Sequence record: KC295538
DNA from: Escherichia phage PBECO4
Length of the DNA: 64,000 nt
Direction: 5' to 3' (one strand)
Shown here: in pieces, positions 30,236 to 64,000 of the stretch
Layout: every line of letters begins with the position of its first letter
Position numbering within the stretch: the first letter of the stretch is position 1
The notes under the pieces: model-generated
The model's input: the letters and a program-made list of their open reading frames with translations, nothing else
What the model was told of the DNA's origin: nothing
The model's database searches: none
Made by a program: the position numbers and the translations under genes

Positions 30236-30457
30236 TCATTCCTCATCACTTTCAGTTAGTATAATGCTATGTACAGTTTCCACATAGCGGTGTGTTTTGG
30301 GTGTGTTATACTTTGTAATTTCATCAAACAATTTAAACAGTGCATCTACTTCACTAAGAGCACGAATGAATACATCCATCTTGGTGACTACTCTGGAAAA
30401 CCCGCGTATGTTATTAAATTCAGAGACGTGTTCATACACAACATAGTATCTATTCAT
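30236..30457 (-). CDS. hypothetical protein (73 aa)
   Basis: Track ORF. Confidence 0.55.
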   Translation of the reverse strand: MNRYYVVYEHVSEFNNIRGFSRVVTKMDVFIRALSEVDALFKLFDEITKYNTPKTHRYVETVHSIILTESDEE

Positions 30458-30972
30458 ATATTAAAAAGTTCCATGAATTCATTGAATAAAGAAGTTCTAA
30501 TGCACATAACAAATTCAAAATCAACATCTATGGTGTCAAGTAGTTTGAACAACTTTGGTACTAATGGATCATTCACCTCAAAGTTATGAATCAAACTTTG
30601 TTGAAACACATTTTCTTCAGTACTATAATCAATAACAAAATATTCAGCAATACCAGGTGGTGTGTAAACATCATATAAAATATGGCGGTGATGATTTGTT
30701 TTAGAACTAGGGGAATATATAAGTTCTATTTCATAAGATTTATCAGCACTGCGTGCGTAACAAACAATATCAGTACTCGTTATTTCTGAACCATCACTTC
30801 TCTCTGAAAAACAAACATCAGCATAGCGTTTTCCAGAGAGATTCAAAAGGTCATGAGTTGTTTTACCATAACAGAAATCAGTTTCAATGCGTATCACATC
30901 TTGATATTCAATTGGTCTTGTATCGCGGCGTTCACGATTAAACACTAATTTCAACAACTCATTAATATCCAT
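30454..30972 (-). CDS. hypothetical protein with EExFQxS motif (family FQ)
   Basis: STEENVFQQSLIHNFEVNDP near C-terminus. Confidence 0.65.
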   Translation of the reverse strand: MDINELLKLVFNRERRDTRPIEYQDVIRIETDFCYGKTTHDLLNLSGKRYADVCFSERSDGSEITSTDIVCYARSADKSYEIELIYSPSSKTNHHRHILYDVYTPPGIAEYFVIDYSTEENVFQQSLIHNFEVNDPLVPKLFKLLDTIDVDFEFVMCIRTSLFNEFMELFNI

Positions 30973-31229
30973 TATTTCGCCTCGATAACCTTAAGGTTAA
31001 CAAAATCACCTTTTACTTTCATGCATTTGAATTCAGTGCGAGTTTCATCCCCACTATCGCGAGGCCAATGAGTGGCAGAGTAGCACTGGTCTGGTGTTTT
31101 ATATACACCTTCACCAATAGTACGAGTGATTTCACCATTGGTGAGAACTACTGCGAGATATAAAGTAAACATGATATTCGCCTTAGAATAATTTATTAAT
31201 AATAATAGCACCCAACGCAAGAACTGCAA
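30972..31229 (-). CDS. hypothetical protein with hydrophobic N-terminus (85 aa)
   Basis: Track ORF. Confidence 0.55.
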   Translation of the reverse strand: MQFLRWVLLLLINYSKANIMFTLYLAVVLTNGEITRTIGEGVYKTPDQCYSATHWPRDSGDETRTEFKCMKVKGDFVNLKVIEAK

Positions 31230-31325
31230 TAATTACAGATACCCACATTACTGCATTCACTGTACCAGTAAGTTCTTTATCAAACTCCCTGCACTTCTTG
31301 CGGTAATCTTCCCACTCTTTGTTAT

Positions 31326-31541
31326 TCACACTGCCACTCCTAATAGGTCGGTAGCTTTCTTGAGTACTACGTCAATGGTTTCCAGTACTGCACCTTTGTG
31401 TTCAATTGATACAATATTATTATAAGTATCAAGGTCCAAGTACTCCATATATTCAGTTTTGAATACACGAACATCAGTACTAGTGATTTTAATATCACAA
31501 CCTTTATCCCAAATAACCTGCATCATTTCATTGGTAGTCAT
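31326..31541 (-). CDS. hypothetical protein (71 aa)
   Basis: Track ORF. Confidence 0.55.
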   Translation of the reverse strand: MTTNEMMQVIWDKGCDIKITSTDVRVFKTEYMEYLDLDTYNNIVSIEHKGAVLETIDVVLKKATDLLGVAV

Positions 31542-31816
31542 TATTCAACCTTATCATAAACAAGTTTGTGTGTGCTTAGTACTTTGTTGTGATGTCCAGG
31601 GCATTCATATACATACAATCGCTCCTGTCGTTTTTCCCAACCACCACAGATACGACCTGATTGTGTACATACCTCATACTCGTTAATAAAAGACTTACCT
31701 GTGAATGTACAATCCTGACGAACTAAGTCTTTTGCACTAAACCTGCCGTCATCATTACATGCTGTAAGAAACATTGTACAGAATACAAAGACAACTGTCA
31801 ATAGTTTTTTAATCAT
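31541..31816 (-). CDS. putative lipoprotein (lipobox LTAC)
   Basis: MIKKLLTVVFVFCTMFLTACNDD. Confidence 0.6.
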   Translation of the reverse strand: MIKKLLTVVFVFCTMFLTACNDDGRFSAKDLVRQDCTFTGKSFINEYEVCTQSGRICGGWEKRQERLYVYECPGHHNKVLSTHKLVYDKVE

Positions 31817-32181
31817 TGAACATCACCCCAACGGAAGCCATTCATATAATTCAAATTCACCTCAACGAGTTCATGTGTTTTTGTACACCAAATTGATAGA
31901 GTTTTTGTAACATCACCAGGTGAACTTTCATACTTCACACAATACCCTTCAATGCGAAGAGTTTTGTTAGTCCAATGTTGCCACTCAATCCAAATTTCAT
32001 TAGGATAATAAACCATATCTTCCTTGAACCTATGGTATTGATCCATCGGTAAGTGACCTTCAACTTCAATTACTTCAGCACTTCGAACAAGTTTGTCAAG
32101 CTTGTACTTTATCTCAGCAAGATATTCTTCATCATTCAGACGAGTTAATAAATCTGCTGCACGTGTTGTATCAAGGCTCAT
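31813..32181 (-). CDS. hypothetical protein (122 aa)
   Basis: Track ORF. Confidence 0.6.
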   Translation of the reverse strand: MSLDTTRAADLLTRLNDEEYLAEIKYKLDKLVRSAEVIEVEGHLPMDQYHRFKEDMVYYPNEIWIEWQHWTNKTLRIEGYCVKYESSPGDVTKTLSIWCTKTHELVEVNLNYMNGFRWGDVQ

Positions 32182-32183
32182 TG

Positions 32184-32429
32184 TTATTCTCCATGAATTA
32201 CGGAAGTGTTGATTCGTGTTTTACCGCTAGTGTATCCAGTACTTGTATTTGCATTAGGACAGTACACAGTGTATAAAGTCGCACCAGCACCATCTTGTTG
32301 CATACGATAAATCTTACACCCTGCTTCTTTTAATTCAGCAGGTAGAACAAAATCACTTGTACGTTCTTTGGTAGAAGCATCACATGCAGTGAGTAGAAAT
32401 GCGACGAGTACTGCTACGATATATTTCAT
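32184..32429 (-). CDS. putative lipoprotein (lipobox LTAC)
   Basis: MKYIVAVLVAFLLTACDAS. Confidence 0.6.
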   Translation of the reverse strand: MKYIVAVLVAFLLTACDASTKERTSDFVLPAELKEAGCKIYRMQQDGAGATLYTVYCPNANTSTGYTSGKTRINTSVIHGE

Positions 32430-62200: not shown

Positions 62201-62252
62201 ATAAAATCCTTTTTATATTGTTAAGGTACTATAATATATTATAGCATCTTAT

Positions 62253-62543
62253 TTAGAAATCTTCCAAACTTTTTTCATCACACCATCGTGATGTACAGAT
62301 GATTGCAGATGCCAGAATTGAAGCACTTGCACGTCCTCCACCGAGTAAGTACTGGCTAATTACGCCAATCATATTGAACACTTTATCATACTCGGTTAGT
62401 TGTTCAAAACCTTTCTTCCAATGCTGATATTCTTCTTCTGTGACATTAAACTCACCATCAAGTTCCTTTAAAATCTTTTTAAGCACAGCACTATGTTCAC
62501 TCATCATCATCTCCATATCGTTCGTCATAAAAATCATCATCAC
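62253..62543 (-). CDS. hypothetical protein (96 aa)
   Basis: Track ORF. Confidence 0.6.
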   Translation of the reverse strand: MMMIFMTNDMEMMMSEHSAVLKKILKELDGEFNVTEEEYQHWKKGFEQLTEYDKVFNMIGVISQYLLGGGRASASILASAIICTSRWCDEKSLEDF

Positions 62544-62582
62544 GATCTAATGGTTCTTTTGGCTTTTCAGACATATATTTCC

Positions 62583-62843
62583 TCACATGGTAAAGGTATT
62601 ATCACCATCCATATCTTCATCAGTTGCTTCAGCTAATGTCTTGATTGTAAGTAATCCACGCTTCACGTACAACATGAAGACCTTTTCATAATTACCAAAC
62701 ATAATCTCAGGTGACATGTAATTCTCTGTTACAATGACGATTGGACGGCCCTGTGAAAGCATACGAAACATAGTACGATATTTGTCAAATGTGCGAAATT
62801 CATCCATGTTCATCATGTGGCGTTTACGAACTACTTTAGTCAT
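62583..62843 (-). CDS. hypothetical protein (86 aa)
   Basis: Track ORF. Confidence 0.6.
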   Translation of the reverse strand: MTKVVRKRHMMNMDEFRTFDKYRTMFRMLSQGRPIVIVTENYMSPEIMFGNYEKVFMLYVKRGLLTIKTLAEATDEDMDGDNTFTM

Positions 62844-62857
62844 CTTAATACCTTTAG

Positions 62858-63298
62858 TTAATTGAACTCTACTTCTGGATAATGATTATAGAACATCTCA
62901 CGAACTGCGTCAAGATGTTCTTGAAATTGTTTTATATCTTCTAATGATGGTGCATCAATAACAGTGCTAAGTTGAAACAACGATTCTTCTGTGTTATATA
63001 GTGACATATCAAATGAGTTATTGTTGTCATCAGTTATGATATTATCACAAATTTCGTATGTGTCAATACAAACATCATCAAGTGTTGTATTATCATATAC
63101 AGTGTATACGAATACAAAAATAAAAGAAGAATGTTCTTTACCATAACGCGGTGGGTCATATGTCACATAGCATTTGTGGTCAAATGTATCGAGTTCCATA
63201 GACACCACCCCAGCTTCACGATATTCATTAGTTTCACTGGTAAGATCCGGTATTGATGTTATCGAAAGTAAGTGGAGAAATTTACTTGGATTTAGCAT
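62858..63298 (-). CDS. hypothetical protein, family FQ
   Basis: TEESLFQLSTVIDAPSLEDI. Confidence 0.65.
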   Translation of the reverse strand: MLNPSKFLHLLSITSIPDLTSETNEYREAGVVSMELDTFDHKCYVTYDPPRYGKEHSSFIFVFVYTVYDNTTLDDVCIDTYEICDNIITDDNNNSFDMSLYNTEESLFQLSTVIDAPSLEDIKQFQEHLDAVREMFYNHYPEVEFN

Positions 63299-63753
63299 TT
63301 CACCACCATTGGATTTTGCGACTGTATATTAAAAAGGGATAATACAAAAGTACTCAATTTTTCGAAACAATCTATTAATACATTTAACTCATCATAACTA
63401 ACACCAATTTCACGAATAAGCGATTGTTGAAAGAATCCTTCTTCGGTTAACGTTAAACTACTAACCTCAGTTATGTTATAATAACTTTGGGATGTTGTGG
63501 TTGATATTATTTGTATTGCAATCGTATCTGATGTTGTGTTGTACAGATATAAATATTTTGTTTTTCTTTCCAATGGATCTATACATGAAAGATCGATCAT
63601 GTCATAGGTTTTTCCAATAAAAATATTACAATCATCTGACAATTCACAACAAATGCGTATATGTTCTTTCGGGTCATGAACACGTTGTGTGTCAAATTCA
63701 CATGACATTGCAATTTCAAAATGATTTTTTATTTCGTCAACATTCATCTGCAC
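63292..63753 (-). CDS. hypothetical protein, family FQ
   Basis: TEEGFFQQSLIREIGVSYDEL. Confidence 0.65.
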   Translation of the reverse strand: MQMNVDEIKNHFEIAMSCEFDTQRVHDPKEHIRICCELSDDCNIFIGKTYDMIDLSCIDPLERKTKYLYLYNTTSDTIAIQIISTTTSQSYYNITEVSSLTLTEEGFFQQSLIREIGVSYDELNVLIDCFEKLSTFVLSLFNIQSQNPMVVKC

Positions 63754-64000
63754 CCACCATTAATTCTTATATTTGTATAGTTTAATGCTTTTTTAATAAT
63801 ACCAATTTCTGTAATTCCTATTACATTTTTCTCAATCAATGACAATTGGAATAGTTCCTCTTCGGAAATATCAATACTGTGAATTCTTGTACAATAATCG
63901 TTGAAGTCATATACATATCGTATTGTATAGTCGTTTATAGAAACTGATACAATTGCAATCCCATCATGGATGTAAGTTAGTTCATTTGAGTATCTATTAA
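63744..64000 (-). CDS. hypothetical protein, family FQ (3' part; 5' end beyond window)
   Basis: ...SIDISEEELFQLSLIEKNVIGITEIG... ending at TGA 63746-63744. Confidence 0.55.
   Translation of the reverse strand, partial: NRYSNELTYIHDGIAIVSVSINDYTIRYVYDFNDYCTRIHSIDISEEELFQLSLIEKNVIGITEIGIIKKALNYTNIRINGGCR

Follow-up and report, generated by a model that had tools for sequence, protein, structure and literature searches.

Many small genes on the minus strand of a 64,000-nucleotide stretch of Escherichia phage PBECO4 (record KC295538; this whole stretch is called the window below) encode proteins with an acidic EExxFQxS motif, which raises the question of whether these genes form one family, how large and how old such a family is, and what its proteins may do. 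The initial annotation listed 17 open reading frames (ORFs) between 30454 and 64000 as a large set of paralogues that share a motif near the C-terminus and differ in their N-terminal regions. All 17 were found on the minus strand with the (S/T)EExxFQxS(T/L)(V/I) motif, namely 16 complete ORFs, encoding 117-180 amino acids (aa), and one ORF cut by the window end (Table 1). An 18th member, outside that range, was revealed by a regular-expression match to the motif at position 24980. The count of at least 17 therefore holds but is a large underestimate, since there are 18 members in the window and 69 in a near-identical genome. In phage phAPEC6 the window members correspond to gp039c, gp054c and a set between gp083c and gp134c.

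A strict regular expression for the motif matched ten times in the six-frame translation of the window, against 0.12 matches expected in shuffles, and all ten matches were on the minus strand. In a leave-one-out profile test, 15 of the 18 members were recovered at E<0.01 with aligned stretches of 50-130 residues, which shows that the flanks align beyond the motif and that the motif is not a low-complexity coincidence. The three weakest members in this test (52745, 54253 and 24846) were all recovered by a profile made from database representatives only, some of which are orthologues of window members with more than 50% identity. An iterative search of the window together with the adjoining part of the phage slurp01 sequence converged on the named ORFs and on four members beyond the window end, so that at least four more follow there; members scored E<=1e-11 and the next ORF 0.1. 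Several neighbours of similar size were tried as hidden members (44210-44629, 44641-45087, 59465-59848, 60858-61388 and the series at 38149-40432), and none of them joined the family profile. The motif, which had been placed 30-40 residues from the C-terminus, lies 33-44 residues from it in most members, but about 55, 69 and 85 residues from it in those at 30454, 53146 and 60300.

The members are very divergent. The alignment of the window members has a mean column identity of 16%, with one invariant Glu and a near-invariant Phe, and pairwise phmmer searches detected just five of 136 member pairs. The latter figure would fit unrelated ORFs that carry the motif by chance or through low complexity, or a DNA element present in several copies. 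However, the excess of motif matches over shuffles, the recovery of members by leave-one-out and independent profiles and a coherent structure model all contradict a chance motif. The motif codons vary synonymously as well (TTC 19 and TTT 19 for Phe, CAG 20 and CAA 15 for Gln, and six codons, AGT, AGC and TCN, for Ser), indicating conservation at the protein level and ruling out a DNA repeat. The chance reading is refuted, and its remaining probability is negligible.

The extent of the family was determined by scanning every stop-to-stop ORF of OR844650.1, an assembled but unannotated, near-identical Asteriusvirus genome of 351,992 base pairs (bp). The profile from the window cluster found 43 ORFs, and iteration converged on 69 members, roughly one gene in nine. 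The motif was present at the profile-aligned position in all 69, with F in 66, Q in 65, the two E in 50 and 55, and S in 52 of them. Three more columns were conserved, comprising two aromatic residues (Y/F) three positions apart and an Asp (Y46, Y49 and D70 of the protein encoded by 47037-47402). The 69 ORFs do not overlap to any large extent and cover 32.3 kb of 352 kb, or 9.2% of the genome. They lie mainly in two clusters, and the genes flagged in the window belong to the smaller one; the members of the second cluster are somewhat longer, with 120-218 aa. The window members had also been described as two blocks on either side of the transfer RNA (tRNA) region, which is not the arrangement found: members are interleaved with the tRNA genes, and those at 49243 and 50060 lie between them.

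The linear ends and the 20,993-bp terminal repeats of the phage fEgEco12 were mapped experimentally in the paper describing that phage. In this genome, the second cluster starts at 27.2 kb, about 6 kb to the inside of the left terminal repeat, and is transcribed inward, and the window's cluster is at about 277-317 kb, far from the left genome end. Another tandem family separates the larger EExxFQxS cluster from the terminal repeat. It consists of 27-31 tiny genes, encoding 65-85 aa with a conserved GTNYQ-E motif, and has 12 copies in a Klebsiella RaK2-like phage.

When 1.84 billion representative proteins were searched, 103 clusters (50% identity) matched at E<=1e-3, nearly all of 115-170 aa, and the motif was found in about 90 of the 99 newly returned representatives. 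All the named matches were Asteriusvirus proteins or came from phage contigs labelled E. coli, and the distant ones came from metagenomic contigs. With the profile from the window cluster only, one metagenomic contig contained 17 members in 20 kb and phage RaK2 contained at least 14 members in 40 kb syntenic with the window; this contig shares neighbouring peptidyl-tRNA hydrolase and DNA methylase genes with RaK2. In the complete Klebsiella RaK2-like phage OU509535.1, a profile made from Asteriusvirus sequences only gave 41 direct matches, and 45 after iteration. All of them are on one strand, in two clusters corresponding to those of Asteriusvirus. The expansion must therefore be old and have taken place before at least two genera, Asteriusvirus and Alcyoneusvirus/RaK2, diverged. 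Comparison of the predicted structure with viral models further points to possible relatives among uncharacterized proteins of Pectobacterium phage CBB, Yersinia phage fHe-Yen9-04 and Erwinia Eneladusvirus. A tblastn search with the family consensus was too insensitive for mapping the distribution.

The copy number is thus about 69 in Asteriusvirus and about 45 in the Klebsiella RaK2-like phage. Judged from these sequences, the family is confined to the clade of RaK2/121Q-like jumbo myoviruses and is a hallmark of that clade, not of one phage. It had been called lineage-specific, and this does not hold, because the family and its two-cluster layout are common to Asteriusvirus, Alcyoneusvirus/RaK2 and uncultured relatives.

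Comparison of the window with the divergent Asteriusvirus TH47 gave a reciprocal-best orthologue for 15 of 16 members. The pooled ratio of nonsynonymous to synonymous substitutions (dN/dS) of these orthologues was 0.30, and every pair was below 1; the ratio was 0.20 for 75 other genes. The low ratio and the retention of orthologues indicate functional genes kept for a long time. Positive selection between the orthologues of the window and TH47 was not seen, and the suggestion that the expansion is diversifying was not borne out at this level. The family is an old and stably kept repertoire, not a fast-turnover one. For one member, at 47037-47402, the orthology was mosaic: the protein is 100% identical in 121Q, though the surrounding 10 kb are about 93% identical to that phage, and it is 65-75% identical in other Asteriusviruses, with a best match of only about 31% in EJP2 and JNE01. 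This pattern suggests recombinational exchange of individual members.

Tandem arrays that occupy 9% of a genome, next to other large tandem families, could also be near-neutral filler. According to the duplication-ratchet idea proposed for 121Q (Hua et al., 2017), tandem duplicates accumulate after capsid enlargement, and the motif would then be merely the folding core of a drifting domain, in keeping with its position in the best-packed region of the structure model. We regard this explanation as quite improbable in view of the purifying selection on every orthologue pair, the 15 of 16 members kept between divergent species, the two-cluster layout kept across two genera and the acidity and solubility that are consistent across the family.

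These last properties were calculated for the 69 members. Their median length is 150 aa (range about 115-220 aa), their median isoelectric point (pI) 4.82 and their median net charge -9, compared with a median pI of 6.88 for the other window proteins of 100-220 aa (p=1e-8); in the few basic members, the charge comes from terminal extensions. A membrane-like segment was found in one of the 69 members versus 22 of 47 neighbours of similar size. The family proteins are thus predicted to be soluble and mostly strongly acidic. The share of membrane-like hydrophobic segments among the neighbours, the 47 non-family window proteins of 100-220 aa, is itself unusually high.

The 121-aa protein of 47037-47402 was modelled by AlphaFold2 from an alignment of 103 sequences, with a mean predicted local distance difference test score (pLDDT) of 78.8 and a predicted template modelling score of 0.73. 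A first model from 32 sequences had the same topology (pLDDT 62.6). The predicted fold has an N-terminal helix (residues 4-15), a five-stranded antiparallel sheet (26-31, 44-51, 54-61, 64-68 and 76-79) and two C-terminal helices (87-96 and 104-114). Model confidence is highest in the first of these two helices (pLDDT above 90), which begins with the motif. The near-invariant residues in the model are E-E-x-x-F-Q-x-S at the start of the second helix, the two aromatics in strand 2 and the Asp in the loop after strand 4; outside these residues the paralogues are about 16% identical. No conserved basic residue that could pair with the two motif Glu was present in the family alignment, which is a hint that they face an external partner or ligand.

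Two explanations build on the conserved residues. The first is that the proteins are adaptors, whose acidic helix docks on one shared hub, such as a host protease, a chaperone, RNA polymerase or the T7 gp0.7-like kinase of the phage, while the variable part delivers different targets. A polar constellation (E, E, Q, S, D and two Y/F) kept nearly invariant in 69 otherwise 16% identical paralogues would be expected of such a docking site, as would the missing basic partner within the protein, and a protein kinase gene does lie in the same region. However, no fused known domain was found in the longest members, and the motif sits in a well-packed helix of the highest confidence and not in a flexible tail, so that we find adaptors unlikely. 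The second is that E-E-Q-S and Y-Y-D form a catalytic site, or a site for a small molecule (metal, nucleotide or signal), common to all copies, which would make the proteins small enzymes or ligand sponges. Residues of these types are typical of active or ligand sites, and the proteins are small and soluble, but 45-69 stably kept copies of one activity are hard to explain and no enzyme or sponge family was matched in Pfam, NCBIfam, PADLOC or the Protein Data Bank (PDB). This explanation appears distinctly unlikely.

Whether the proteins are part of the virion could be assessed from published mass spectrometry. The phAPEC6 virion proteome (62 proteins) contains no family member, neither gp039c, gp054c nor those between gp083c and gp134c, whereas the neighbouring non-members gp077 and gp078c and a separate ten-member family (gp003-010) are present. 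In the stretch of RaK2 that was examined, virion-structural annotations were given to ORF182 and ORF233 but to no family member. No conserved, capsid-targeting peptide was found at the N-termini of the members.

These data bear on the view that the proteins are packaged and ejected like the T4 internal proteins or the phiKZ inner-body proteins, with E-x-x-(Y/F)-F-Q as a protease-processing or capsid-targeting signal. The likeness is that those, too, are small paralogues in T4-related or jumbo phages, and the Asteriusviruses have an inner body. The T4 and phiKZ proteins are packaged and processed by a protease, in contrast to the EExxFQxS members, which were absent from the phAPEC6 virions. The cleavage site of tobacco etch virus (TEV) and 3C proteases is E-x-x-Y-x-Q|S, and the motif resembles it. 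This reading of the motif was rejected: the motif is inside a confident helix and not in a linker, the members are not in the virion proteome, and no such protease was found. A crude active-site regular expression over all ORFs, which is a weak test for a 3C- or trypsin-like protease, gave no trypsin-like match and a single plausible GxCGG candidate, which is a Nudix hydrolase. The resemblance to the TEV/3C site appears to be a coincidence, and the packaged-protein view is largely refuted and very improbable.

The transcriptional setting is consistent with expression from the host machinery. Strong sigma-70-like promoter matches in the window were almost all on the coding strand (Table 1) and include three perfect consensus sites. 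Several of them end 30-50 nucleotides upstream of start codons or 7-12 nucleotides upstream of tRNA genes, and a near-consensus site ends 32 nucleotides upstream of the member at 50060-50413. The near-consensus sites at 49233-49205, 51048-51021 and 52152-52124 (minus strand) end 7-12 nucleotides upstream of tRNA-Ser(gct), tRNA-Ser(tga) and tRNA-Gly, respectively, so that unmodified RNA polymerase of the host may suffice for transcription of the phage tRNAs. A strong hairpin with an 11-bp stem, followed by a T-run (46364-46340, minus strand), separates the start codon of 45898-46326 from a promoter-like site (46395-46366); it could be the terminator of an upstream unit or a regulatory leader structure.

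We suggest, at a little less than even chances, that the family supplies a repertoire of binders or inhibitors that act inside the cell early in infection and are all variants of a single scaffold. The genes would be transcribed by host RNA polymerase early in infection, because strong promoter matches are biased to their strand and the larger cluster adjoins the left genome end. The proteins may then act in the cell by binding or inhibiting macromolecules of the host (or of a competitor). A shared scaffold, or a shared site of contact, would be provided by the conserved helical unit at the C-terminus and its polar and aromatic residues, and the target of each paralogue could be set by the variable surfaces of its N-terminal helix and sheet. 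Soluble, acidic, non-virion proteins encoded on a promoter-rich strand plausibly fit such a role in host interaction, and the toolkit for host interaction or takeover proposed in the initial annotation is partly supported. At about 9% of the genome, the amplified family would also contribute to its large size.

Several points weigh against the proposal of an early binder repertoire. The total number of sigma-70-like matches was not above that in shuffles, and only the strand bias of the strong sites is striking. The case for early timing consists of these promoter-like sites and the genome position, and an argument from entering the cell first is inapplicable to the window cluster, which is remote from the left end. 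A fast arms race is made less likely by purifying selection and stable orthology. In the structure model the motif occupies the best-packed region, so that its role may be purely structural, and the model itself is only moderately confident and has no solved relative that could anchor a function. Neither experimental work nor transcriptome data were found on any of the members.

Comparison with known systems gave partial likenesses only. None of the 18 members matched Pfam at E<=1, including the SUKH/Imm and PF02330 profiles, and there was no match in NCBIfam, PADLOC-DB or in a sequence-profile search of the PDB. In PHROGs the 18 window members fall in about 20 separate groups without function (e.g., phrog_24941, 17453, 24510 and 28118). 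These groups hold the same proteins but are unconnected, and neither the unity of the family nor the motif is recorded there; membership of a well-characterized family was thus not found. Among the structural alignments, those that extended furthest (76-81 of 121 residues) were with structures of the p32/gC1qR/MAM33 fold (1p32, 1yqf, 3qv0 and 3jv1). The p32 proteins are likewise acidic and have the same order of N-terminal helix, antiparallel sheet and two C-terminal helices, but their sheet has seven strands against five in the EExxFQxS model. The hhalign probability against p32 was 0.1%, an approximate value. On the predicted model, the likeness is one of topology, not of membership. The structure search gave no significant match to SUKH-type or anti-restriction folds. 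The anti-restriction proteins Ocr, ArdA and Arn are likewise small, very acidic, soluble and non-virion, and are encoded in regions with host-type promoters, but they are single-copy, as opposed to dozens of EExxFQxS paralogues, and have no sequence or fold similarity to them.

The poxvirus ankyrin/PRANC proteins and the MGF360/505 proteins of African swine fever virus also comprise dozens of paralogues near the genome ends, with a conserved C-terminal element and a variable remainder, and are thought to be directed at the host. This is an analogy only, as the proteins are unrelated and the EExxFQxS orthologues are stable and under purifying selection. A bolder form of the adaptor model would make the family a combinatorial system, the phage counterpart of the ankyrin/PRANC families, whose 45-69 copies (6-9% of the DNA) were a major step to the jumbo size of RaK2-like phages; we hold this to be doubtful.

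Jumbo-phage reviews and the papers on RaK2, CBB, phAPEC6, Sharanji, fEgEco12 and 121Q (Hua et al., 2017) contain generic remarks on paralogues only, and no description of EExxFQxS proteins was found in them. The RaK2 paper states that about 10% of the gene products are paralogues. The array noted in 121Q is most likely the GTNYQ tiny-gene family and not the EExxFQxS family. In Bacillus phage G, a zinc-ribbon expansion of about 35 copies was called unprecedented (Iyer et al., 2021). It is likewise a massive tandem amplification of one small-protein family and has been discussed as a route of genome enlargement, but the EExxFQxS family is about twice as large and far more divergent (mean identity 16%), forms two clusters and has another fold and motif. 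Lineage-specific expansion in jumbo phages is thus already known as a kind of feature, while the EExxFQxS family, its fold, its motif and its scale appear undescribed.

The RaK2/121Q-like phages, which are therapy candidates, rank with the largest phages of E. coli and Klebsiella, and over 80% of their genes lack annotation. About one gene in nine is now united by a single profile, with a common scaffold, a testable motif and a shared set of properties. The share of a jumbo genome taken by a single amplified family was quantified as 9%, in addition to the neighbouring family of 27-31 tiny genes, which bears on how jumbo genomes grow. If the proteins are host-directed binders, each genome would hold a natural library of 45-69 variants on one fold.

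Table 1. Members of the EExxFQxS family and other features (window coordinates unless another genome is named; M+P, recognized by motif and profile)
Feature	Position	Strand	Product	Motif	Evidence or remark
Family member	24846-25418	-	190 aa from ATG	NDEEYFQESIV	Basic N-terminal extension; leave-one-out E=0.013; phAPEC6 gp039c
Family member	30454-30972	-	172 aa	TEENVFQQSLI	phAPEC6 gp054c
Family member	45077-45532	-	151 aa	TEEEHFMESTV	M+P
Family member	45480-45908	-	142 aa	DSEMFFQLSTV	M+P
Family member	45898-46326	-	142 aa (GTG start; 139 aa from ATG)	TEEMYLQLNFV	M+P
Family member	47037-47402	-	121 aa	TEESLFQYSMI	M+P; modelled by AlphaFold2
Family member	47395-47820	-	141 aa	TEEKFFQYCLL	M+P
Family member	49243-49602	-	119 aa	DEEDEFQKRTV	M+P; between tRNA genes
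Family member	50060-50413	-	117 aa	TEEEYFQMSTV	M+P; between tRNA genes
Family member	52745-53149	-	134 aa	VEEEFQYNLL	EE-to-FQ gap one residue shorter; leave-one-out E=0.63; database-representative profile E=7.8e-7
Family member	53146-53649	-	167 aa (TTG start; 162 aa from ATG)	TEEERFMLSTI	M+P; basic C-terminal extension
Family member	54253-54645	-	130 aa	SEEDEFQKNTT	Leave-one-out E=0.053; recovered by database-representative profile
Family member	59025-59468	-	147 aa	LEEMYFQQLTI	M+P
Family member	59848-60303	-	151 aa	NDEYVFQQSTV	M+P
Family member	60300-60842	-	180 aa (TTG start; 171 aa from ATG)	SEEEFFQRSTI	M+P; long C-terminal extension
Family member	62858-63298	-	146 aa	TEESLFQLSTV	M+P
Family member	63292-63753	-	153 aa (GTG start)	TEEGFFQQSLI	M+P
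Family member, cut at window end	63744-64000	-	C-terminal 84 aa present	SEEELFQLSLI	Complete gene, slurp01 1008-1385
Cluster partly within window	OR844650.1, 9-49 kb				22 members
Group	OR844650.1, 199-213 kb				4 members
Single gene	OR844650.1, 252 kb				1 member
Single gene	OR844650.1, 325 kb				1 member
Second cluster	OR844650.1, 265-295 kb				About 41 members
Strong sigma-70-like promoter matches	44258-63066	-			28 of 29 sites scoring 10/12 or better on coding strand
Six tRNA genes (Thr, Asn, Met, Ser, Ser, Gly)	47837-52112	-			Interleaved with family members
RpoD-like sigma factor	35592-36557	-			slurp01/phAPEC6 annotation
Cytosine DNA methyltransferase	61340-62200	-			slurp01/phAPEC6 annotation
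T7 gp0.7-like protein kinase	about 20570-21210	-			slurp01/phAPEC6 annotation; position mapped by coordinate offset only
GTNYQ tiny-gene family	fEgEco12, 21091-27280; OR844650.1, about 279.6-300.7 kb				Outside window

The window has a G+C content of 33.7%, and nearly all the genes in its 30-64 kb part are on the minus strand. A stretch of the window at 44-54 kb is 93-99% identical to the Asteriusvirus genomes of Salmonella phage SD-15_S21 and Escherichia phages slurp01, SP27, Sharanji, 121Q and phAPEC6. These close relatives belong to the RaK2-like jumbo myoviruses and have genomes of 320-385 kb, and the window is, on this nucleotide identity, from an Asteriusvirus, a 121Q/PBECO4-like jumbo coliphage. 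Among the family genes, the annotations of slurp01 and phAPEC6 place an RpoD-like sigma factor, a cytosine DNA methyltransferase and the T7 gp0.7-like protein kinase.

Several other features of the window were observed. A lone plus-strand gene (41354-42508, 384 aa), equivalent to phAPEC6 gp077, interrupts the long minus-strand run, and its neighbour at 42550-43362 (minus strand) is equivalent to gp078c. Both were detected as virion-associated by mass spectrometry in phAPEC6, despite otherwise non-structural surroundings. Ten tandem paralogues of about 380-430 aa are encoded at 88-10100 (plus strand) and match, by position, phAPEC6 gp003-gp010 ('DNA condensation proteins'). Mass spectrometry identified the majority of these phAPEC6 proteins in virions, and the ten paralogues may be components of the inner body. 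A small family of five paralogous genes (about 105-125 aa), located at 10786-12205 and 18950-19985 (minus strand), can be detected by pairwise search. Finally, three paralogous mini-genes (about 54-59 aa) are dispersed among the tRNA genes at 50485-50810 and 52394-52573 (minus strand).

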